A program made the translations under genes and the position numbers. A stretch of DNA of 64,000 bases from an uncultured Candidatus Saccharibacteria bacterium (GTDB lineage: Bacteria > Patescibacteriota > Minisyncoccia > Phycocordibacterales > UBA2100), in contig CAYSUJ010000004.1 of NCBI GenBank assembly GCA_964434285.1, positions 18,732 to 82,731 of the forward strand. Direction: 5' to 3'. Below the pieces are notes generated by a model. It was not told the DNA's origin. It ran no database searches and worked only from the letters and a program-made list of their open reading frames with translations. This document shows, one piece after another, positions 3,161-54,513 of the stretch (position 1 is its first letter; every line of letters starts with the position of its first letter).

Positions 3161-3861
3161 TCAGAGGGTCACAGTGTCCGAGTTACGGAGGAGGAGCCGA
3201 GCGTCGGCGTCCCACCGACGGTCGCGGCCGAGCCTGCCGACGTAGGCGCTCCACCCGCGGTCGCCCCGAACGAAGCCGAGAACCGAGACGCTGCCATTCA
3301 CATCCTCAACGAATGCGAAGTTGGCATAGCCGTCAGTACGCAAGCCGACTTCTTCACCCGATTCCTACCGCTCGACGAGCGCTTCGGCTTCCGAGAGTGC
3401 GAGCGTGAGCCCGCGCCCCCGCAGTCGTGCAACAATCTCATCGTCAGCTGTACCGGGCACAGCCTGTACGGCCGCGAGCGCCATCTCCCGGAAGGTCGTG
3501 CTTCCGGATTCTGGAGCTGGTAGATCCCGACCGATTCGGTCGCGTTCGCGGTCTGCTGAGCGAGAAGCCAGCGATCGATGTCGGGATGGCGATATCCCCA
3601 AAGCGTGCCAGTGAAGCAATCCCGGGTTTTCTTGGGCTTTGCGCCGGTGAAGATCGCCTTTTTGTGGAAGACGAGAGTCGGACGCATTCGCTTTTCAGCG
3701 GACACCGAAAGTGCCTCTCGCAACGCTGTGGCCAGGGCTTTTCCATTGTTCGCCCAATGCAGGGCGACGTCAGGCTCGATATCGCGCGGCAACGCCTTTA
3801 TTACGGCGCCGGCGAATTCGGAAAACTGCCCAACGGACAAGGCTGTTCCATGTTTAGACAT
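3161..3861 (-). pseudogene. DGR target (variable) protein gene, apparently frame-disrupted
   Basis: From the ATG at 3861 (ribosome-binding site GAAAGGAA), a well-behaved frame reads MSKHGTALSVGQFSEFAGAVIKALPRD... but decays after about aa 110. A second frame becomes protein-like (...REMALAAVQAVPGTADDEIVARLRGRGLTLALSEAEALVER) and is separated by one in-frame TAG at 3365-3367 from the VR-containing C-terminal frame, which ends at 3161. Confidence 0.5.
3180..3292 (-). repeat. DGR variable repeat (VR)
   Basis: Aligns to the TR with 19 mismatches in 113 bp. Eighteen of these are at TR-adenine positions (minus strand) and one is a synonymous C/T. It encodes VLGFVRGDRGWSAYVGRLGRDRRWDADARLLLRNS. Confidence 0.8.
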
Positions 3862-3924
3862 GGCTGTTCCTTTCAAGGTTCACTTCCCAGCCTGATGCCG
3901 GAGAAGGGCACTATTATATAACGT

Positions 3925-5940
<2,016 letters not shown>

Positions 5941-22419: not shown

Positions 22420-25218
22420 CTAGTATGTTGGGAAATCGGGCATGGGAGGGGGCGGAGGCGGCGCAAAGCGCTCACGGATCTCCGTTTCAATCTCCTCCCT
22501 ATCGCGGCCGAACGTACGATACGACAATTTCTTGAGAGAATCAACATGCTCAAAACTGAACTGCGGGAGGTTCGCGGTGCGGAGCGTGAAGGGGCGCACC
22601 GGCGTGCCGTTTGAGAGCATGGCAACTGCAGCGGTGCGGTTTTCCTGATTTTCGAGGTCATTACGTGTGAAGACGGGGTGGAACTGCTTCTCGAGAAACT
22701 CGGCATCGGTCGTACCAATGCGGAATGCAACTTTCGTGCCGACGTTACCCACAACGGCATCGCGAATCTTCTCGTCGAGCTGGGCAATGAACTGGTGCGC
22801 GATCGTGAGCGAGAGCTTGTATTTGCGGGCTTCGGAGAGAATGGTTGAGATTGACGGCGTGGCAAAGTTTTGGAACTCATCGATGTAAAGATAAAACGGC
22901 GGGAGTGTGCCACGGGTGTCGACGCGCGAGAACGCCGCCTGGAGGAATTTGGATACGAGCACGAGGCCGAGGAGCGAAGCGTTTCGGTCTCCGAGGCGAC
23001 CCTTAGATAGATTGGCGAGGAATATCTTCTTTTCGTCCATTATTTTTCGGAAATCGAAGGCAGATTTTTGCTGCGCGACGATAGGCCGCATGATGTCGTT
23101 TGCGGAAAAGACGTCGATTTTTGAGGAAATGTAGGGCACGATGTTTTCAAGAGACGCTTCCCCACCCGCGGCTTCCGCAATCTTCGTCCAGAAGTTTACG
23201 ATGACCGGATTTTTGCAACGTGAGAGTTTGAGGCGACGAAACGCGCTGTCGGCCATCACTCGCGGAATCTCGAGAAGGGTGGAACCGCTCGCCTGATCCT
23301 CCACGACGAGTTGCGCAGCGTTCCGGTAGTATTGCTCGAACATCGGGCCAAAGGCATCGGGAACATCCGAATACAGCTTGCGGAAGATGCCATACACCTC
23401 ATCAACGACGAATGTCTTTAATTCCGGACGTGACTCGTCATACTCGAGCATGTTGAGTCCCATCGGGCGCGCCGTGTAGGCTGGGTCGAAATAGATGACG
23501 TCGTTGTAGCGTTCGGGAGGCACTGCAGCTAAAATCTCCTCGATGTCGGTGCCGTGCGGATCAACATAACCCACGCCTTCCCCATTCTGCATGTCCTGAA
23601 TAATCATGTTCTTGAGGATGCCGGTTTTACCCGTACCCGTTTGCCCAATCACATAGCAATGACGGAGGCGATCTTGCGCACCAAAGCGAACTTCGCGCTC
23701 TTCGGCGCCGTACCGATTGATGCCCATCACGATGCCGTCGGGGGCCATGTCGACAGGTGCAGGAGCCTGTTTTGCGTTCGACTTCTTGAGTTCACGCGAG
23801 GTCGTCACACGCTCGGCGGTAAAGTGCACCATCGTCACAATCTCACCAAGCGAGAGCGGAATGGCAGACCCCGCATCGAATGTACGGTAGGTGAATTCCT
23901 GCAAAGGGTTCCCAAATTCGGGCAACCACCCACTGCCCGCTTTCGTAAAACGGAGACGATTTCCTCGTGAATCATCAAACTGATTGAAAGGCGCGATGAG
24001 GTTGTCGAGGAGGATATCTGCACGCTCTTTGTCGGGAGCGGAGGTTACGAGCCGAATGACGGCTGGCACAATACGGCTCTTGATCTTCCTCCCGATCTCT
24101 TCGGTTGCCACTTGGTCGCCCTGCTTCATCATGCGCCCCTTCTCTTCCTCGCGCTCTTTTTCGGACGTTATAACCGACTTCACAACGTCATGCACAAAAT
24201 CACCGAATACCGTCTCGGGCGTGTTAAGGGCCTCACCAATGTGTTTGCCTTTCTCAAGCGCACGGAGAATCTTCTTGTAGTGCTGATTGTACCGCTCACC
24301 TTCCGTGGAAACGACGATTTGGAGCGCCGCACCCTCGCCGTGCTTTGCAATTTTCGCAAATGCCGCGAGAAGCACGTTCATCGGATCGTGTTCGAAGAGT
24401 TCGTAGGTTTTGAGAGGATACGCAGGGTGCTCTGCAAGCGACGCAGTTGCGAGTGCGTGCACGCCGTCGTAATTAAAAATGTTGTAATCGCCGCGAAGTT
24501 CTGAGATGCGCGCATTCGGAAATACAGATGAGATGAGCCGTTCCGCAAGCGCTTGCTTGGTGCGCGGCACGGCGAGGTAGAGCGATGCCTCCTCGGTGCC
24601 CTCGGCAACGGCAATCTCGATAGAAAAGCCCTCGGCAGGAGTGATGAGCGAGAGCAGGCCCGCATAGAGCTGTTCAGAGGACGCGAGCACCTGCTCGAGT
24701 TTCTGTTGGCTCTTTTCCTCGCTCTCGCCGTGCGCCTGGGGGTGGATCTCAAATAACACGAGGTGCAGGGCACGCGAGACACGCTCGGGAGCCGGTAGCC
24801 CTTTCTGCGGCAACCCTTCGGCAATGTAGCGCACGAGGACGCGATGGAGATCGTCCTCGAGGTGCTGATTTTTCATCTTCGCGACAACTGAGAGGGCGTT
24901 TCGGATGCCACGCTCGGCAACTATTTTCAAGAGCTCGTCCATCTGTGTGTCGTGCACCTCAGGCTCAAGCTTCAAGACATGATGTAAGATCTCATGCTCC
25001 GGCATCGCAACCGCCTCGTGCAAGACCGCTTGCGGTGCCACGCCAGCATATTCTTGTATCTCGCGTCGCGCGATGCGCTCACGATCAGGCTGCGCAACGG
25101 CTTCAAGCTCTTTCTCCTTCTCTGCCACGCGTTCACGCAAAAAGCGAAGCTCCTCTTCTGGAGACTTGAACGTGAATGAAGGTGCAATCGCACGCTCCCC
25201 TATCCCGCGCGGCGGCAT
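22420..25218 (-). CDS. FtsK/HerA-superfamily (DUF87-like) P-loop ATPase with a ~460-aa uncharacterised N-terminal region
   Basis: Walker A GQTGTGKTG followed by YVDPHGT (the DPHGEY-like HerA/VirB4-clade signature). Walker B YIDEFQNFA...TIAHQ. The C-terminus ends in a poly-Pro tail. Confidence 0.55.
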   Translation of the reverse strand: MPPRGIGERAIAPSFTFKSPEEELRFLRERVAEKEKELEAVAQPDRERIARREIQEYAGVAPQAVLHEAVAMPEHEILHHVLKLEPEVHDTQMDELLKIVAERGIRNALSVVAKMKNQHLEDDLHRVLVRYIAEGLPQKGLPAPERVSRALHLVLFEIHPQAHGESEEKSQQKLEQVLASSEQLYAGLLSLITPAEGFSIEIAVAEGTEEASLYLAVPRTKQALAERLISSVFPNARISELRGDYNIFNYDGVHALATASLAEHPAYPLKTYELFEHDPMNVLLAAFAKIAKHGEGAALQIVVSTEGERYNQHYKKILRALEKGKHIGEALNTPETVFGDFVHDVVKSVITSEKEREEEKGRMMKQGDQVATEEIGRKIKSRIVPAVIRLVTSAPDKERADILLDNLIAPFNQFDDSRGNRLRFTKAGSGWLPEFGNPLQEFTYRTFDAGSAIPLSLGEIVTMVHFTAERVTTSRELKKSNAKQAPAPVDMAPDGIVMGINRYGAEEREVRFGAQDRLRHCYVIGQTGTGKTGILKNMIIQDMQNGEGVGYVDPHGTDIEEILAAVPPERYNDVIYFDPAYTARPMGLNMLEYDESRPELKTFVVDEVYGIFRKLYSDVPDAFGPMFEQYYRNAAQLVVEDQASGSTLLEIPRVMADSAFRRLKLSRCKNPVIVNFWTKIAEAAGGEASLENIVPYISSKIDVFSANDIMRPIVAQQKSAFDFRKIMDEKKIFLANLSKGRLGDRNASLLGLVLVSKFLQAAFSRVDTRGTLPPFYLYIDEFQNFATPSISTILSEARKYKLSLTIAHQFIAQLDEKIRDAVVGNVGTKVAFRIGTTDAEFLEKQFHPVFTRNDLENQENRTAAVAMLSNGTPVRPFTLRTANLPQFSFEHVDSLKKLSYRTFGRDREEIETEIRERFAPPPPPPMPDFPTY

Positions 25219-45341: not shown

Positions 45342-46031
45342 CTACCCCAAAAGCCCCCAGCCGCTTGTTTCTCCCCTGTCTTTCGCGCACAGCAGTTTGA
45401 TTGTTTTACCCTGCCTGACAAATCTGAGGCCATTTTGGATGTTGCAGGTGGCACAACGGCCTTTCGCCTTCTCCCACGCTTCCGCTTTCACTGCCGCCGA
45501 GAGATACCGCTCCTCCTCGAGCACTGGATCACGATCACTCCGCATGCGATCGGCGGGCTGCAGGAAAAAATGAAAGATCTTTCGTCCGTCACGAGTCACC
45601 GGAGCGGCATCGACGAGATCAAAAATCCCCTTGTCGAACCACACACCCGGATCAAGCTTTTCATACACCTGCACTTGGAGTGGCTCTTTGCGCACGCCGT
45701 CCTTTAGGGCGTGGGCAGCTTTGTAGAACTTGCCGTTCTCGGTGAGCTTGTCGCCGCCATACATGAGGAGTTGGTCGGGCGATTTTCCACCCGTCTCTTT
45801 CGTCGTGGAATCGTGCCCCTCAAAGGTGTAGCGCTTCTTCTTCGCATCCCACTCGTCCCTATATTCCCCATCGTCTTTTGCCAAGACGAGAAAGACGCTG
45901 AGCGCTTCGCCCGCATCGCGAAAGTTCATGCTCTTCTGCAGCATCAACCCCTCGCGCTCCATGAGCTCGTTTGCAGAGAGAATAGAGGTGGGGCGCTTCT
46001 GCACATACACCTCGCCGAGAAAATTCGACAT
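45342..46031 (-). CDS. hypothetical protein, starts 3 bp after the Fic/Doc gene
   Basis: 229 aa. A possible C-terminal Cys cluster (GRCATCN...LLCAKD). Confidence 0.35.
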   Translation of the reverse strand: MSNFLGEVYVQKRPTSILSANELMEREGLMLQKSMNFRDAGEALSVFLVLAKDDGEYRDEWDAKKKRYTFEGHDSTTKETGGKSPDQLLMYGGDKLTENGKFYKAAHALKDGVRKEPLQVQVYEKLDPGVWFDKGIFDLVDAAPVTRDGRKIFHFFLQPADRMRSDRDPVLEEERYLSAAVKAEAWEKAKGRCATCNIQNGLRFVRQGKTIKLLCAKDRGETSGWGLLG

Positions 46032-46034
46032 ACG

Positions 46035-47009
46035 CTATTTCAGCAATTGCGTAACGAGTGCGATCATCTGCTCTTTTCGCTCCGGCTTACTCTCCGCGAT
46101 GAGGAGTGTGAGCGCGGTGAGCGCTGCGGGGTTGATGTTCCCTGCCCGCTTGATGCGTGCCCTGCGGAGAAACCACACAAACGCAAACGCGCCGCTGCGT
46201 TTGTTGCCGTCGGTGAAGGGATGATTCTTCACCATGAAGTAGAGAAGGTGCGCCGCTTTTTCTTCTGCGGTTGGATAGAGCGCTTTGCCGCCAAAGGATT
46301 GCATGATGTTGCCCACAATGCCGCCGATGCTTCCCTGTGCGCGCTCGTGCGCAAAGAGTTCCGTCGCCTCGTCTTTGCGCATCAATTCTGTGCGGAGTGT
46401 GTGTATCGCGGCCGTCAATTCTTCGCCCGTGAGTGCAATGGCTTTTTTCGTGACACCGATCGGCTTCAAGGCATCTTTGTCGTATGCGTCGAGAGAGACC
46501 CAGGTGCCCGCAAATTCCTTGATGAGCTCCAAAACCTGTTTGGGATCAAGCGTGACGTGCTCCGGCAGAAGCGCCTGCACGTCGGCAACTGCCTTCATAA
46601 AAGCGTCGTAATTGCGGCCGATTTGCTTTCGGTTAATGGTGTAGCCGCGGGTGATGTGCTCGCGGAGGGTTTTTGTGGCCCAAATACGAAACGCTGTCGC
46701 CTGTTTGGAATTGACGCGGTAGCCAACTGACAGAATCGCATCAAGATTATATTGTTCGATTCGTCGTTTTACCGACCGAGCACCCTCTTTTTGAACTGTT
46801 TCCAAAATGGAAACAGTTGCTTTGCGCGAAAGCTCTCCACTTTCATAAATATTCTTAAAATGTTTCGATACTGCCGCCTTTCCAACGCCAAATACCGCCG
46901 CTATATCATCAAGCGAGGCCCATAGCGTTTCGCGCGTCACGTCTGCACGGAATTCAACATTTCCGCGCTTGTCCTTAAATATGACAATCGATGTCTCCTT
47001 TTTAGCCAT
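46035..47009 (-). CDS. Fic/Doc-family protein with an N-terminal RhuM-like DNA-binding region
   Basis: C-terminal HPFTDGNKRSGAFAF (Doc/Fic HxFx[D/N]GNKR motif). The N-terminal ~150 aa are RhuM/antirepressor-like. Confidence 0.6.
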   Translation of the reverse strand: MAKKETSIVIFKDKRGNVEFRADVTRETLWASLDDIAAVFGVGKAAVSKHFKNIYESGELSRKATVSILETVQKEGARSVKRRIEQYNLDAILSVGYRVNSKQATAFRIWATKTLREHITRGYTINRKQIGRNYDAFMKAVADVQALLPEHVTLDPKQVLELIKEFAGTWVSLDAYDKDALKPIGVTKKAIALTGEELTAAIHTLRTELMRKDEATELFAHERAQGSIGGIVGNIMQSFGGKALYPTAEEKAAHLLYFMVKNHPFTDGNKRSGAFAFVWFLRRARIKRAGNINPAALTALTLLIAESKPERKEQMIALVTQLLK

Positions 47010-47071: not shown

Positions 47072-47410
47072 ATGAAATACACCGGTGGATGCCATTGCGG
47101 CGCAGTTCGTTATGAGTTTGAGGGCGAGTTTACAGAAGGCTTGGAGTGCAATTGTTCGCACTGCGAGAAAAAGGGGCTCCTCCTTTATTTTGCCGACAAA
47201 GACACGTTCAAGCTCCTTTCAGGCGAAGAAAATCTCACCGAGTATTTGTTTAACAAGAAGCAGATTCGGCATCTCTCGTGCAAAACATGCAGCGTGCAGG
47301 CGCACTCAGAAGGCATCGGCTTTCCGAAAGTGGGCATCAACCTCCGCTGCATCGATGGCGTCGATGTCGCTTCACTCCCCCGCAAGCACTACAACGGGAA
47401 GGATATGTAA
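47072..47410 (+). CDS. Gfa-like (CENP-V / glutathione-dependent formaldehyde-activating) zinc-binding protein
   Basis: MKYTGGCHCGAVRYEF...CNCSHC. Confidence 0.6.
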   Translation: MKYTGGCHCGAVRYEFEGEFTEGLECNCSHCEKKGLLLYFADKDTFKLLSGEENLTEYLFNKKQIRHLSCKTCSVQAHSEGIGFPKVGINLRCIDGVDVASLPRKHYNGKDM

Positions 47411-47539
47411 GCAGTCGGGCTTACGGCGACGCAATCCGCTTCAGTGGCATCATTGACTTTGCACTATTCGGGGGCTATATTTTCTACATCAAGACGAGGG
47501 GGGTCCGAACGGTTAACTACCTAAGGCACCCCCCTCTTT

Positions 47540-47776
47540 CTATTTTTGTCTTTGCGCTATTTTTGCTTTGATGGCCGCATCATCAAGGTGCACAAAGTAA
47601 TTGTTGGACAATTTTTTATAGAGTGAGGATCTGAACTGACGATTCGGAAACAATATTTTTTCAAACTTATGTTCCTCGATGAGGAAATCGACAAGCATTT
47701 TATAATCGCCGTCTCCCGAAACGAGCACAACCTTATCGAATGGATCGCCCTTGTACAGCCGTATGAAGCACGTCAT
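47540..47776 (-). pseudogene. C-terminal fragment of an NYN/LabA-like domain protein
   Basis: ...VVLVSGDGDYKMLVDFL...; the N-terminal half of the domain is absent. Confidence 0.45.
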
Positions 47777-47812
47777 CTATTCTTTTGAACGCGTTCTCAA
47801 ACATGCGCCCAT

Positions 47813-47877
47813 CCTACCCTCAAAATGAAGAAACGCCACCTCCTCCGCGCCTCTAGATTCACTTGATTTTCAGCGAG
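47813..47877 (-). repeat. conserved leader element, copy 1 (shared with 49290-49355; partial copy at about 48548-48580)
   Basis: About 95% identical over 65 nt. On the minus strand it contains GGAGGAGG plus GTG GCG TTT CTT CAT TTx, i.e. a ribosome-binding site and the first codons MAFL(H/R)(F/L). Confidence 0.6.
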
Positions 47878-47966
47878 CGTCCGTTATGATTGATCGTATC
47901 TTCCAGTCAGCAATGACTGAAAGGGTACTACATCCAAGGGTGGCCCTCCGAAAGGAGGGCCACTTT

Positions 47967-48566
47967 TCATTTGGGTCGCCTTTTGAGTTCGGTGCCCCAG
48001 ATATCATCCGAGATATCGAGAACGTCCGTGTAGCCATCGCTTCCTGTTCTGAGCTCGTGCGATACATTGTTCTTCGATGAGAAAACGTAGACCTTTTTCC
48101 CTCCGGTGCGGAGATATGAGATGAGTGCAAGAAAATCGGAATCGCCAGTGAAAAATACAGCTGTACCGTAGGTGTCTCGATGGTGCATGGCGTCAATGGT
48201 CATCTCCACGTCCATGTTCCCTTTTTCTTCAATAAGGTCGCCCTCCTCCGCGTGGACGAGAATGCGCTTGAGCTCTTTCTTTCTCACAATAAAACCAAGT
48301 CCTTTCTTCAAGTACGTGTAGAAATTATGCTTCTGCCGCAGGCTATACGAGCGGGTCCCCTCCTTCGGATACGCAGTGTAGAAGAATATCCGGACAACTT
48401 TGGGCGCGAACTTCTTCTGAAGATAGTTCCGCAGTTTCTCGTAATCGAATACTCTCCCTTTTGATTTCTGGGCAGCCCACACATTGGAAGCATCTATAAA
48501 AACAGCCACACTATCCTCCATGAGCTTCATGAAAGAATATGGTACCCCAAAACGAAGAAACGCCAC
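47967..48566 (-). CDS. NYN-domain (LabA-like, PIN-fold) protein
   Basis: VAVFIDASNVW...GNMDVEMTIDAM...VFFTGDSDFLAL. Its GTG start overlaps the HAD stop as TAGTG. Confidence 0.6.
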   Translation of the reverse strand: MAFLRFGVPYSFMKLMEDSVAVFIDASNVWAAQKSKGRVFDYEKLRNYLQKKFAPKVVRIFFYTAYPKEGTRSYSLRQKHNFYTYLKKGLGFIVRKKELKRILVHAEEGDLIEEKGNMDVEMTIDAMHHRDTYGTAVFFTGDSDFLALISYLRTGGKKVYVFSSKNNVSHELRTGSDGYTDVLDISDDIWGTELKRRPK

Positions 48567-49306
48567 TAGATTGCTTGGGATGCGAAATACTCTTCCACCG
48601 CACCTGGAAGTTCGTGGGGATGGTCGATGATTTTGAAGGGATTCCCATTCTCGAGGCGCTGGTGCTCGTGGAAACCCCAGCTGACCCCGATCGCGCCGAC
48701 GCCTGCTGCTGTTGCTTCTCGGATGTCGCCCAGCGTATCGGTAACAAAGAGGCAGTGTTCTGGCGCAAGCTCGTAGCGCTCGAAGAGCATGTGCATCTTT
48801 TCGACTTTGCTCGGGTGGACGTCGTTGCCAAAGACGTCTTCAAAATACTGTGCGGCGTCGTGTTTTTTAAGGAATGACATCACCGGACTTGAGATGTTCG
48901 ATGAGATGATGGCCATGCGATAGTGTGCCGAGAGATCGTGGAGTGCGCGAATGATGCCCGGAAATGGATGCGCACGCTCGAACAGTGGCACATAGTTCTC
49001 CCACCAATCAAGATCGTGGCTGCATTGCGTGTGGTCGCGTTCGTCGTGTGGGAGGCGCGCATCATTGATGTTCCCCTCAAAATAGGAACGGTAGCGCTCT
49101 TCTGTCTCGTACTGGCAGACCTTTCGCGCAGTGCCGTACGCAGCAAAAAAGGAATCAACGATGACACCGTCGAAATCAAAGAATACGCATTTTCTGTCGT
49201 CGCGGGGCACGGCGTAATAGTAGCCGACTGGCCAAAATGGCGCCATTTGATCCAGTAACCGACATAGCTCCCTTGCAGAGCGCAGTATCAAATGAAGAAA
49301 CGCCAC
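48566..49306 (-). CDS. HAD-superfamily hydrolase
   Basis: DxD motif FFDFDGVIVDS. The N-terminal MAFLHL is encoded by the repeated leader element. Confidence 0.6.
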   Translation of the reverse strand: MAFLHLILRSARELCRLLDQMAPFWPVGYYYAVPRDDRKCVFFDFDGVIVDSFFAAYGTARKVCQYETEERYRSYFEGNINDARLPHDERDHTQCSHDLDWWENYVPLFERAHPFPGIIRALHDLSAHYRMAIISSNISSPVMSFLKKHDAAQYFEDVFGNDVHPSKVEKMHMLFERYELAPEHCLFVTDTLGDIREATAAGVGAIGVSWGFHEHQRLENGNPFKIIDHPHELPGAVEEYFASQAI

Positions 49307-49355
49307 CTCCTCCGCGCCCCTAGATTCACTTGATTTTTAGCGAGCGTTCGTTATA
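49290..49355 (-). repeat. conserved leader element, copy 2
   Basis: See copy 1. Confidence 0.6.
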
Positions 49356-49417
49356 CTACTCCTATCACTACGAAAGGGACCCTTGTACGGATTCGTCCGT
49401 ACCGGGGGCCTTTTCAT

Positions 49418-49966
49418 TTAATGGTAGCCGAGTTTATGCTTTACCTCCTGTAAATATACGATTGGCACACCCGTTCGTTTCAATAAGATCGAACAGCGTT
49501 TAATGGGTGCGGGGGATACGATCGTACAGTCGACGTTCTTTTCCTGCCAAAATTTAACAAGCGAAGAGTAATCGCCATCGCTAGACACCATTACAACAGA
49601 CGTGACACCGCCCTCGAAATGGTCCCTTGCCGCTTTCAGCACCAAATCAGCGTCACAATTCCCCTTTGCCTTTCCGTCTCCATCGTAAACAACTTCTTTG
49701 AAGATAAATTTGTAACCAGAGTTCTGCAGTGACGTATATAGCCCCGCATTTTTGGGCATGAGACCGATAAAAAGTAGGGCTTCCTCCACTCCAAATTTTT
49801 GCCGAATCCATGAGCGAAACTTGCGATAGTCGAGCTTCCATTTCTCAGATTCAATTCCTTTGTGAAGATTTGCACCGTCGATATAGGCAATCGTTTTTTG
49901 CGCGCCCCCGAACATGCATGAAATTGTATGCTGAAATACCCGAAAATCCACTGTGGACTGGGTCAA
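49418..49966 (-). CDS. NYN-domain (LabA-like) protein, divergent paralog
   Basis: IAYIDGANL...GNCDADLVL...VMVSSDGDYSSLV. Confidence 0.55.
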   Translation of the reverse strand: MTQSTVDFRVFQHTISCMFGGAQKTIAYIDGANLHKGIESEKWKLDYRKFRSWIRQKFGVEEALLFIGLMPKNAGLYTSLQNSGYKFIFKEVVYDGDGKAKGNCDADLVLKAARDHFEGGVTSVVMVSSDGDYSSLVKFWQEKNVDCTIVSPAPIKRCSILLKRTGVPIVYLQEVKHKLGYH

Positions 49967-49993
49967 ATGGCGCCATTTGACCCAGTCGCTCTT

Positions 49994-50587
49994 TCAGAGC
50001 GGCTCGTAAGTCGGCTGCTTGGCATGCCCTACCCTGCGCAACTTGGCTTCTACGACGAGCTGATTCAGATAACGCTGGGCGGTGGAATCGGAGACGCGAA
50101 GCAGCTTTTCGACGTCGTCGTTTTTGATTTTTCGTTTTTTGGCAGCGAGCTGCAGGATTTTGTCGAGGCGGGCGCGCTTGCGGAAGCGAATGGCTTCGAG
50201 CGCTTCGCCGAGGCGACTCCGAATGGAAGTGTCGGGAATTGGTGGGGTGGCAGGGGTGGCTGGTTGAGAGGCCGCGGGGGTGGCCGCCGAGGATACGGCG
50301 GCTTTTTCTGTTGGAGCAGGGGTTGGTGGCGGAGTTGGCGCGGAATCTGAAACGGGGGGTGGTTCTGGCTGCGGTGAAGCGGGGGTGGAGTCTGAAACAG
50401 GAGCCGGAGACGCCTCGGGCGTCTCCGGCTCCACTGGAATCTCAATTTCTGGGAGCGGCACTGGTTCAGGCTCGGTGACTGGCGCTACTTCAGAAGAAGA
50501 GGCGCTTACGACTTCAGGCGCACTCTCAGCCGGCGGCGAAGCCGCCGGCACTTCTGCACCCACTTCTTCCCCATCACTCATGCACAA
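49994..50587 (-). CDS. protein with a Pro/Ala/Ser/Glu-rich disordered N-terminus and a C-terminal winged-helix HTH
   Basis: The C-terminus KIKNDDVEKLLRVSDSTAQRYLNQLVVEAKLRRVG looks like a DNA-binding helix-turn-helix. Confidence 0.4.
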   Translation of the reverse strand: MCMSDGEEVGAEVPAASPPAESAPEVVSASSSEVAPVTEPEPVPLPEIEIPVEPETPEASPAPVSDSTPASPQPEPPPVSDSAPTPPPTPAPTEKAAVSSAATPAASQPATPATPPIPDTSIRSRLGEALEAIRFRKRARLDKILQLAAKKRKIKNDDVEKLLRVSDSTAQRYLNQLVVEAKLRRVGHAKQPTYEPL

Positions 50588-53313: not shown

Positions 53314-54513
53314 CTAGGCTGTGATCTTCGTCACGACACCTGCACCCACCGTCTTACCACCCTCGCGGATAGCAAAGCGCTGCTGCTCTTCCATAGCGAT
53401 TGGGCCCACGAGCTTGACCTTGAAGGTCACTGTGTCGCCCGGCATCACCATTTCCACACCCTCCTTAAGTGTCACTTCGCCCGTCACGTCCGTGGTGCGG
53501 ATGTAGAACTGTGGCTTGTAACCCGTGAAGAATGGCGTGTGACGGCCACCCTCTTCCTTGGTGAGGATGTACACCTCGGATTCAAACTCCGTGTGTGGCT
53601 TCACCGTGCCTGTCTTTGCAAGCACCTGACCGCGGTGCACGTCTTCCTTCTTGAGACCGCGAAGAAGAACGCCCGCGTTGTCGCCGGCCTGACCCTGCTG
53701 GAGGGACTTGTTGAACATTTCAACGCCGGTGACGGTTGTCTTCACCGTATCTTTGATACCGATGATCTCGACCTCTTCGCCGACCTTCACAATGCCGCGG
53801 TCGATACGACCCGTAACAACGGTGCCGCGACCTTCGATCGAGAAGACGTCTTCGATTGCCATAAGGAATGGCTTGTCGAGCTCACGCACAGGCTCTGGAA
53901 TGTATTCATCAAGTGCCTTGATGAGTTCCATCACCTTGCCCGACCACTCGTTGCCCTGCTCAGGATTCTCGAGCGCCTTAAGGCCCGAACCGCGGATGAT
54001 TGGCGCGTTCTTGCCGTCAAAGCCCTGCTTGTCCAAGAGATCGCGCACTTCCTCTTCGACGAGATCGACGAGCTCTTTGTCGTCAACCATGTCGACCTTG
54101 TTGAGGAAAACCACGATCTTCGGCACGCCCACCTGCTTTGCAAGAAGGATGTGCTCGCGTGTCTGAGGCATCACGCCGTCAGTTGCGGCAACCACGAGGA
54201 TAGCGCCGTCCATCTGAGCGGCACCCGTGATCATGTTCTTAATGTAGTCGGCGTGACCAGGCGCGTCGACGTGTGCGTAGTGACGCGTTGGCGTCTCGTA
54301 CTCAGAGTGCGAGAGCGAGATCGTAATACCGCGTGCCTTTTCTTCAGGCGCCTTGTCGATATCATCGACCCCCTTCGTCTGCGCACCATAGCCATTGCCC
54401 GCCTTCGAAAGGACGTTCAAGATAGCTGCGGTAAGCGTTGTCTTGCCGTGGTCAACGTGACCGATGGTACCAACGTTCACGTGCGGCTTAGTTCGCTGAA
54501 ATTCTCCTGCCAT
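53314..54513 (-). CDS. tuf: elongation factor Tu
   Basis: [13 protein letters not shown]...DAPGHADY...NKVD. Confidence 0.95.

Follow-up and report, generated by a model that had tools for sequence, protein, structure and literature searches.

What does a short stretch of DNA do when it recurs, almost unchanged, at the junctions between unrelated genes? The question is raised by a locus in a 64-kb window (the whole stretch of DNA analysed, 64,000 nucleotides of contig CAYSUJ010000004.1 in assembly GCA_964434285.1, to whose positions all window coordinates refer) from an uncultured Candidatus Saccharibacteria bacterium, where a 65-nt sequence, referred to below as the block, is repeated among genes encoding NYN-domain proteins (the NYN or LabA-like family, PF01936, COG1432) and a HAD-family hydrolase, all on the minus strand. 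The initial annotation had read the block as a translated leader at which gene cassettes recombine. We propose instead that the block is probably a copied divergent (two-way) promoter region, a reading to which we assign a probability of about 0.68, with higher confidence in the half that would drive small RNA (sRNA) genes and lower confidence in the exact -35 box of the minus-strand half.

A repeat scan found two full copies of the block, identical at 62 of 65 positions (95%), and a third, partial one:

49290-49354, no strand: block copy A, between sRNA-1 and the HAD side (repeat scan; unique in the window)
48545-48566, minus strand: partial copy B (GTGGCGTTTCTTCGTTTTGGGG), between the HAD stop codon and the NYN-2 start (repeat scan and alignment)
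47823-47887, no strand: block copy C, between sRNA-2 and the NYN-3 pseudogene (repeat scan)

Read along the minus strand, the locus consists of a gene encoding a helix-turn-helix (HTH) protein, a 32-bp palindrome, NYN-1, a hairpin region, copy A, a second palindrome (palindrome 2), HAD, copy B, NYN-2, two hairpins, copy C, a C-terminal NYN fragment (the NYN-3 pseudogene), and a further hairpin. The near-identical blocks reported initially are real, one of them having been placed 10 nt off (47813-47877 instead of 47823-47887). The shortened copy reported with them is also present, as 22 nt that stretch to ~27 nt when matched against the flank of copy C, but it contains neither the sRNA promoter nor GGAGGAGG, the presumed ribosome-binding site, and reads CGT where the other copies read CAT, so that the claim of each copy supplying GGAGGAGG plus GTG GCG TTT CTT CAT was overstated. 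Nor does the block occupy every gene junction, as the first NYN gene has only a related 10-mer, GTGGATTTTC, at 49942-49951. Copies A and C differ at 47852, 47871, and 47881, all outside the promoter hexamers and the GTGGCGTTTC motif described below.

Within the window the block is confined to this locus. Its segment GTGGCGTTTCTTC occurs exactly three times (0.18 expected), 24-nt and 29-nt sub-patterns match two sites only (shuffles expect 0), and a search with 24-, 29-, and 13-nt sub-patterns allowing mismatches found nothing new in the 64 kb. Beyond the window, an exact 20-mer of the block gave seven matches in 185,579 species-representative genomes, none extending past the 20-mer, and no match in viral contigs, so the wider search for copies suggested initially returned chance matches only. 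The block folds no better than shuffles (z = +0.08 and -1.40 on the minus strand, +1.17 and -0.40 on the plus strand), and the repeat scan reported no inverted repeats in it. Because it does not fold on either strand, readings as a riboswitch or other structured leader, an attC site, or a terminator were dropped. A miniature inverted-repeat transposable element or insertion sequence was also rejected, given the lack of inverted repeats, the confinement of the copies to these adjacent junctions in 64 kb, and the chance-level matches, at most, in the genome and viral collections. Tiny plus-strand open reading frames (ORFs) within the block (MKKRHLLRA(S/P)RFT) have no Shine-Dalgarno (SD) motif and are not conserved in two related loci, L030 and L032 (loci retrieved from databases are cited by such numbers).

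In our proposal, the locus would be a tandem array of three modules, in each of which a minus-strand NYN gene is faced tail-to-tail by a short plus-strand RNA gene with its own sigma-70-type promoter and an intrinsic terminator abutting the NYN stop codon. In the non-coding DNA adjoining two of these RNA genes, the block would form a back-to-back promoter pair. Its plus-strand half (~47850-47890 and ~49317-49357) would hold the -35 box, spacer, and -10 box of sRNA-2 and sRNA-1 respectively, and its minus-strand half (GGAGGAGGTGGCGTTTCTTCATTT) would supply a -35 box with its spacer to the next gene on the minus strand, whose transcript would begin at or next to the start codon (a leaderless mRNA). 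The predicted plus-strand elements are:

47863-47890, plus strand: sRNA-2 promoter in copy C; -35 TTGATT (47863-47868), 16-nt spacer, -10 TATGAT (47885-47890); promoter scan
~47898-47972, plus strand: sRNA-2; 5' hairpin, single-stranded GGGUACUACAUCCAAGGG, then a terminator hairpin and U-run overlapping the NYN-2 stop codon
49330-49357, plus strand: sRNA-1 promoter in copy A; -35 TTGATT (49330-49335), 16-nt spacer, -10 TATACT (49352-49357); conserved in L029 and L030
~49364-49419, plus strand: sRNA-1 candidate; CCUAUCACUACGAAAGGG... with a long terminator hairpin, whose U-run abuts the stop codon of NYN-1
47453-47481, plus strand: sRNA-3 promoter, outside the block; TTGACT-17-TATATT, 10 of 12 matches; the L037 equivalent is TTGACA-18-TATAAT
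~47488-47547, plus strand: sRNA-3 candidate; converges on the NYN-3 pseudogene; core UCCGAACGGUUAACUACCUAAGGCAC conserved in L036 and L037

The plus-strand 3' boundary of the block falls inside the -10 hexamer. The terminator-like hairpins noted initially on this strand are indeed present, with T-runs, and would be the terminators of predicted sRNA genes driven by the block's own promoter.

For sRNA-2, L009 and L011 share with the window the 70-80 nt past the NYN-2 stop codon, where both hairpins show compensatory changes. The 18-mer CCCTTGGATGTAGTACCC, the invariant linker, retrieved 15 metagenome stretches, of which 13 (10 distinct sequences) have the two-hairpin layout, while the sRNA-2 loci of L009, L011, and L032 were reached independently, via the protein. 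Counted together, 14 distinct metagenomic sequences other than the window carry sRNA-2. In an alignment of 14 distinct sequences after deduplication, including the protein-derived loci and the window, the two outer helices are paired in 95.5% of cells, compared with 87% in column shuffles and 33-60% with the partners slid; eight of 16 pairs are changed on both sides, and none of 500 shuffles reaches the covariation score. Because the 19 G-U or U-G cells in this alignment would be A-C mismatches on the NYN-sense strand, sRNA-2 is assigned to the plus strand of the window. A covariance model of sRNA-2 (R1) has its sole strong window match at 47889-47976 (89 bits). Each related locus gives a single match of 71-99 bits, on the sRNA strand, and scores on the opposite strand never exceed 20 bits. 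The fold has z = -6.65 versus shuffles, and the RNA adjoins a NYN-family gene, in the order gene then RNA, in 12 of the 13 loci outside the window.

The promoter boxes are conserved as well. Nearly all loci have TTGAYW-16/17-TATAMT at a fixed distance upstream of the RNA, with spacers that are unrelated between lineages; the hexamers were found in L009, L011, L013-L016, L018-L020, L023, L026, L029, L030, and L032, and examples of the sRNA promoters are TTGATT-16-TATGAT, TTGACA-16-TATACT, and TTGATT-17-TATAAT. Conserved boxes over variable spacers are, as far as comparison of sequences can tell, the footprint of an independently transcribed gene. The sRNAs are conserved across genomes, with respect to structure, strand, and promoter boxes, and we infer from this that the RNAs are made. 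Rfam 15 has no match at its gathering score anywhere in the window, and at E <= 10 it gave three chance-level matches in 47400-50100, none on the sRNAs.

We considered whether sRNA-2 might be an antisense regulator of its own NYN-2 mRNA. RNAduplex of the core against 10 orthologous mRNAs gave z values of ~0 at varying positions, with no conserved site. As the core has no conserved target in the NYN-2 mRNA, an interaction between protein and RNA seems more likely than antisense control. A separate observation concerns the sequence just beyond the sRNA-2 promoter, where several lineages have a TGTGGAT(AA) motif and the window has GGTGGCGTTTC. The reverse complement of the motif, TTATCCACA, is a perfect DnaA-box consensus only in L018 (~2659-2700), L019, and L026, with weaker forms in L022, L029, L014, and L009; since the perfect form is confined to the L018/L019/L026 lineage and absent from the window, a DnaA box was rejected here.

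The other two candidate RNAs would share this design. The segment from stop codon to promoter at sRNA-1 is near-identical in the NYN-1 orthologue loci L029 and L030, G-U pairs occur in the plus orientation only, and the fold has z = -4.75. sRNA-3 has three compensatory stem pairs (in three sequences) and a fold z of -4.52. Neither was accepted as a member of the sRNA-2 family, as the R1 model misses both and only a short CUAC...AAG...GGG motif, seen by eye, is shared.

How the genes themselves begin bears on the translated leader of the initial annotation, in which GGAGGAGG would be a ribosome-binding site and GTG GCG TTT CTT CAT the first codons, so that swapped cassettes would gain the N-terminus MAFL(H/R)(F/L). 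The gene content on which that annotation relied, namely two NYN ORFs (49418-49966 and 47967-48566), a HAD ORF (48566-49306), and a C-terminal NYN fragment (47540-47776), was confirmed by Pfam, and the 20-codon mini-ORF that it described is present. The genes, as we would delimit them, are:

49418-49915, minus strand: NYN-1 gene, 165 aa, start ATG 49915; Pfam NYN; identical to a 165-aa database protein (P0121)
48566-49210, minus strand: HAD-family hydrolase gene, 214 aa, likely start GTG 49210, alternative ATG 49246; Pfam HAD_2
47967-48530, minus strand: NYN-2 gene, 187 aa from MKLMEDS (184 aa if from MEDS); Pfam NYN, E = 3e-24
47540-47804, minus strand: NYN-3 pseudogene, frameshift near 47770; full-length family member at L037 3767-4297

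In favor of a translated leader, two of the three copies have their GTG in frame with the ORF that follows, without a stop codon, and at copy B the GTG overlaps the HAD stop (TAGTG), which would be compatible with translational coupling. However, the homologues begin elsewhere. Among the best 120 NYN-2 homologues most are 184-193 aa long, with nothing to match the first 12-15 residues of the 199-aa ORF; nucleotide similarity of NYN-2 to orthologous loci starts exactly at ATG 48530; and in L032, the closest NYN-2 orthologue (87% aa identity), the stretch equivalent to MAFLRF... contains an in-frame TAA. Window 47512-49985 recurs with 100% identity in a 2.5-kb Logan contig (SRR14932608), where the gene caller made NYN-2 184 aa long (from MEDSV) and HAD 226 aa. 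In L009 the first residues of the HAD homologue are MRDDRRCVFFDFDG, corresponding to GTG 49210 in the window, 32 codons into the long ORF, and NYN-1 homologues are ~166 aa long. As the homologues of NYN-2, NYN-1, and HAD all begin downstream of the block, the upstream GTG starts are, on this comparative evidence, artefacts of ORF extension, and the same first six residues in unrelated proteins arise only when every ORF is begun at its most upstream GTG. Exact-protein look-ups with the long-ORF HAD, the long-ORF NYN-2, and P0121 gave no match, which for the two long ORFs hints that gene callers choose other starts.

The ribosome-binding site fares no better. A working SD site needs more than 2 nt between it and the start codon. 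GGAGGAGG ends 2 nt before the GTG and is thus unlikely to be one, while copy B has no SD motif at all, and copy C opens only a short dead-end ORF. Each real start in the locus has instead its own -10-like box 6-8 nt upstream, for example TACAAT 7 nt before the NYN-1 ATG and TACTAT 6 nt before the HAD GTG 49210. Together these points make the translated leader very unlikely. They also advise caution with annotation in general: in a genome prone to leaderless transcription, taking the longest ORF would yield false N-termini.

The NYN assignments differ in score, NYN-1 reaching 45 bits and NYN-2 86 bits in Pfam (cut-off 24.2) and the NYN-3 fragment 21 bits, under the cut-off. The nearest solved structure is 2qip (E = 5e-4), the PADLOC model for a "LabA-like NYN nuclease" matches the proteins weakly, and the bacterial LabA-like NYN group was listed as being of unknown function in the 2017 classification of PIN-like nucleases (PMC5499597); the literature searched offered nothing more recent. 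The NYN-2 family is strongly conserved in Patescibacteria, with matches named Kaiserbacteria, Uhrbacteria, Moranbacteria, and Falkowbacteria. In the NYN-3 pseudogene the first ~85-100 of ~176 codons are missing and the last ~75-90 remain (from family residue ~90-100), with KRIDDVLH in one frame and FIRLYKGDPFDKVVLVSGDGDY in another. Most NYN-3 homologues in databases (P0242-P0360) are themselves only 70-137 aa long. The called gene in L037 (4001-4297) is an artefact, an internal Met after GGGAG having been chosen in an ORF open for 176 codons (3767-4297), and the gene in L036 is genuinely truncated; N-terminal truncation, real or called, seems unusually common in this family.

With the start codons moved downstream, the minus-strand half of the block would lie where a -35 box is expected for leaderless mRNAs:

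47830-47839, minus strand: GTGGCGTTTC, -35 region of a leaderless-type promoter; TGGCGT-16-TAGGAT-6-ATG (47804)
49942-49951, minus strand: GTGGATTTTC upstream of NYN-1; TGGATT-16-TACAAT-7-ATG (49915); region conserved in L029 (4917-4949)

On the minus strand of copy C, GGAGGAGGTGGCGTTTCTTCATTT continues as TGAGGG TAGGAT GGGCGC ATG, with the textbook spacing of a leaderless promoter. The NYN-2 start may be served by TGGCGT-15-TACCAT-8-ATG, or by an 18-nt spacer to CATATT followed by 5 nt to the ATG, and the HAD start by TGGCGC-17-TACTAT-6-GTG. The exact pattern GTGGMKTTTC occurs four times in the window, all at this locus, on the minus strand (47830, 48557, 49297, 49942), and each time upstream of a gene start, and we infer that it is a -35 element. 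The layout of GTGGATTTTC or TAGATT, 16-17 nt, TAGGAT, 6 nt, and a start codon also follows the sRNA promoters in L030, L032, and L009.

This architecture extends beyond the locus. In the window, TAnnnT stands 6-7 nt upstream of 16 of 66 first ATGs of long ORFs, compared with 2.7% of all ATGs (p = 1.7e-11), and SD-like motifs precede eight of the 66, which suggests that leaderless transcription is widespread in this Patescibacteria genome. Examples of TAnnnT-type starts are at 25218 (minus), 15543 (plus), 43012 (minus), 47072 (plus), and 59362 (minus), and several -35 regions in the window read TGGCG and not TTGACA. We found no description of leaderless transcription in Patescibacteria in the literature. 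A -10 box 6 nt from the ATG together with a TGGCG-type -35 would be a first sketch of promoter architecture in an uncultured lineage of this group.

How, then, did the same promoter region come to lie beside different genes? One alternative is that a single gene pair was recently duplicated in tandem and that the block is its last recognisable part. The regular spacing of ~730 bp would suit this: the block copies are 727 and 740 nt apart, the palindromes 730 nt. However, NYN-1 and NYN-2 are 23% identical as proteins and each is 65-87% identical to its own orthologues elsewhere, and the units have no nucleotide similarity outside the block, the 22-mer, and the palindrome. The divergence of the two proteins and the lack of other nucleotide similarity exclude a recent gene duplication, thereby contradicting the simple gene-pair duplication that the initial annotation had offered as its refutation. 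As the RNAs beside the two copies also belong to different families, this alternative is extremely improbable.

We propose that the two modules are ancient and diverged and that nothing but the promoter segment has recently been copied, or homogenised, between them. Spacers like those of the block are found in the promoters of the sRNA-1 orthologues (L029, L030). Most sRNA-2 orthologues have unrelated spacers; the exception is the closest of them, L032, whose version is nearly identical to that of the sRNA-1 locus L030. On the simplest reading, an sRNA-1-type segment probably overwrote the sRNA-2 site, and gene conversion would have kept the two copies alike since. Later rearrangements would have followed, with loss of an HTH gene copy after copy A, flanking of HAD by 17-nt repeats, and 5' truncation of NYN-3. 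They involve three further features:

49994-50581, minus strand: gene for a Pro-rich protein with a C-terminal DeoR-like HTH; Pfam HTH_DeoR, E = 9e-4, under the curated cut-off; adjoins the array
49956-49987, no strand: perfect 32-bp palindrome GACTGGGTCAAATGGCGCCATTTGACCCAGTC, between the HTH gene and NYN-1 (repeat scan)
49225-49256, no strand: palindrome 2, imperfect, upstream of HAD; preceded by a remnant of an HTH-gene 3' end

Beyond copy A the sequence jumps to this HTH-gene remnant and palindrome 2, at a place where L029 has an intact homologue of the HTH protein after sRNA-1. HAD lies between the direct repeats GTGGCGTTTCTTC(A/G)TTT (49290-49306 and 48550-48566). It also lacks a stop codon of its own (48566-48580, minus strand): the L009 homologue ends in YFAG and the window protein in YFASQAI, reading four codons into sequence like the AATCTAG part of the block and ending in ATCTAG. 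The junction ATCTAG/TGGATTTTC (ATCTAG/TGG) is common to HAD here and to an unrelated DUF1905 gene upstream of the NYN-2 orthologue in L032. The first palindrome has 13-nt arms around GGCGCC and a relative after the HTH homologue in L029 (6097-6134). Palindrome 2 has its center, TGGCGC, where the -35 box of the predicted HAD promoter would lie, and it looks like a chimera: the left arm resembles that of palindrome 1, the right arm that of the L029 palindrome. Such a palindrome could serve the HTH protein as an operator, or it could be a core site for recombination.

These features raise the possibility that a site-specific or otherwise targeted, cassette-like recombination system inserts and exchanges gene modules at the block, at the GTGGCGTTTC motif, at the 13+6+13 palindromes, or at several of these, which could coexist with a promoter role. 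The direct repeats around HAD, the ATCTAG/TGG junction of unrelated upstream genes in the window and L032, and the chimeric palindrome around GGCGCC, like core sites of tyrosine recombinases, all point that way, as do the differing neighborhoods of the NYN-sRNA modules in L009, L011, L029, L030, L032, and L033 and the position of the array in a variable island beside a candidate defence gene. On the other hand, the search for a nearby recombinase that the initial annotation had suggested found no recombinase, integrase, or transposase domain in the 30 ORFs scanned with Pfam across ~36-62 kb (~12 kb either side; small ORFs left out). The block has neither inverted repeats nor a significant fold, and its 20-mer has only chance matches in 185,579 genomes and viral contigs. 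The palindrome is present only in the window and L029 among the fetched loci, and its seven matches in viral contigs are all chance, none extending. Homologous exchange between similar promoters fits the repeats and rearrangements at least as well as a dedicated cassette system, and we consider the latter unlikely. The locus does bear clear traces of recombination, and of the initial idea of recombination at a shared sequence, the shared non-coding junctions and the contrast between a 95% identical block and 23% identical NYN genes are retained.

Several points weigh against a copied divergent promoter. The sRNA-2 set was mostly fetched with the exact 18-mer, so that the invariance of its core is partly ascertainment, and sRNA-1 and sRNA-3 rest on three sequences each, sRNA-1 with only G-U/A-U changes and no double compensatory change. 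TGGCGT is a poor match to TTGACA, and in copy A it lies only 10 nt from GATACT, the wrong spacing; copy A also fits the alternative GAGGAG-17-GATACT, in which other bases would act as its -35, and sigma-70 geometry is assumed for Patescibacteria promoters throughout. The argument for concerted evolution assumes that L030 and L032 represent one lineage, and 95% identity over 65 nt could also be kept by a bound regulator.

The last point leads to an alternative in which selection preserves a site for a shared regulator, such as the HTH protein, between the -35 boxes, so that sRNA-1, sRNA-2, and the downstream genes are co-regulated and no recent copying is needed. The three substitutions between copies A and C avoid the hexamers and the GTGGCGTTTC motif, a second lineage (L030/L032) likewise has near-identical promoter halves at its sRNA-1 and sRNA-2 loci, and the HTH gene is syntenic with the module. 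Yet selection seldom keeps 62 of 65 positions, promoter spacers included, orthologous blocks elsewhere vary freely in their spacers, and the stretch between the two -35 boxes is not conserved between lineages, which together render a purely selective explanation quite unlikely. A copied divergent promoter is the reading that we retain.

A by-product worth following, and less ordinary than a duplicated promoter, is the set of NYN-sRNA gene pairs without a database family. Judged from the loci compared, three sRNA families with no Rfam match lie tail-to-tail with three NYN/LabA-like families of predicted RNases in many genomes of the candidate phyla radiation (CPR), and we found no description of such a pairing in the literature. 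It is possible, and we suggest it tentatively, that a Patescibacteria NYN nuclease and a dedicated convergent sRNA form a widespread module, in which three or more protein families and three RNA families diversified together and the RNA acts as a specific partner of the nuclease, whether by inhibiting it like an antitoxin, by serving it as cofactor or guide, or as a decoy substrate. If so, this would be a new class of protein-RNA module, whose arrays, orphan truncated copies, and promoter homogenisation would resemble those of toxin-immunity islands, and the RNA partner would give a concrete, testable handle on the role of NYN proteins.

The surroundings of the modules were also recorded. In the window, tuf (53314-54513) and the S10 ribosomal-protein operon enclose a variable stretch of ~10 kb that contains the array and two further genes. 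One encodes a RhuM-plus-Fic/DOC protein (46035-47009, minus strand) that matches the PADLOC candidate defence family PDC-S23 (E = 2e-108), and the 229-aa protein encoded after it (45342-46031, minus strand) has no match in Pfam, PADLOC, or NCBIfam. Elsewhere, the NYN-2/sRNA-2 module lies in defence-island-like settings, among MazG-like, HAD, DUF2726, and type IIG restriction-modification genes in L009 (3670-9075) and among DUF3800, N6_N4 methylase, AIPR, and NERD genes in L011 (3622-9278). A full-length NYN-3-type gene with its convergent sRNA adjoins a diversity-generating retroelement (RVT_1 reverse transcriptase, bAvd) in L037-L039 (1670-4297).

Among known systems, integron cassette arrays offer one comparison, as they also consist of short unrelated genes separated by a recurring non-coding sequence and joined at a common junction. 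Integron cassettes are promoterless and expressed from Pc, whereas the genes here have their own predicted promoters and the recurring sequence would itself be the promoter region. An integron array was rejected, as no recombinase was found in the 30 ORFs (~36-62 kb), the block is unfolded and has no attC-like imperfect inverted repeat, and the genes have their own -10-like boxes, as read from the sequence; the initial annotation, which had searched for attC cores in vain, was right on this point. Orphan toxin/immunity modules downstream of contact-dependent inhibition (CDI) and Rhs loci form tandem arrays through recombination at shared junctions. As in those modules, a 5'-truncated fragment, here of an NYN gene, persists beside an intact partner gene; unlike them, the locus has no large delivery protein, the partner is an RNA, and the NYN proteins are only predicted nucleases.

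By analogy, the arrangement would work most like convergent type I or RNA-antitoxin (type III) toxin-antitoxin modules, yet it departs from both in their defining features. In type I systems of the Bacillus txpA/RatA and bsrG/SR4 type, a convergent, 3'-overlapping antisense RNA controls a small membrane peptide toxin. The locus resembles these in having protein and sRNA genes transcribed toward each other with a common terminator region, in its several paralogous copies in variable islands, and in the persistence of a truncated gene beside an intact RNA (the NYN-3 pseudogene and sRNA-3). Membership was rejected because the protein is a soluble, 165-187-aa NYN/PIN-like predicted nuclease and not a small hydrophobic membrane peptide, and because extended antisense complementarity is lacking, the overlap being at most the terminator hairpin and the sRNA-2 core having no conserved site in the NYN-2 mRNA. 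With type III systems (ToxIN, CptIN, TenpIN) the locus shares an endoribonuclease-type protein with a dedicated structured sRNA, and paralogous families each with its own RNA. The type III RNA gene lies upstream and co-oriented, as tandem repeats processed by the toxin, while the RNA here is convergent, occurs once per locus (a general repeat scan found no tandem repeat), and has its own predicted promoter and terminator, for which reason type III membership was rejected too.

For the block itself, the comparison is with divergent promoter regions, including promoters of leaderless mRNAs, as described in two papers on Mycobacterium (PMC3898074, PMC4633059). It differs from known divergent promoters in that one of its promoters would drive an sRNA, in that the whole segment is duplicated between non-homologous neighbors, and in that the gene-side -35 would be GTGG(A/C)(T/G)TTTC and not TTGACA. 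It resembles compact divergent promoters in that two sigma-70-like promoters would face apart within ~70 nt, and leaderless promoters in the -10 box that stands 6-7 nt from the start codon of many genes of this genome.

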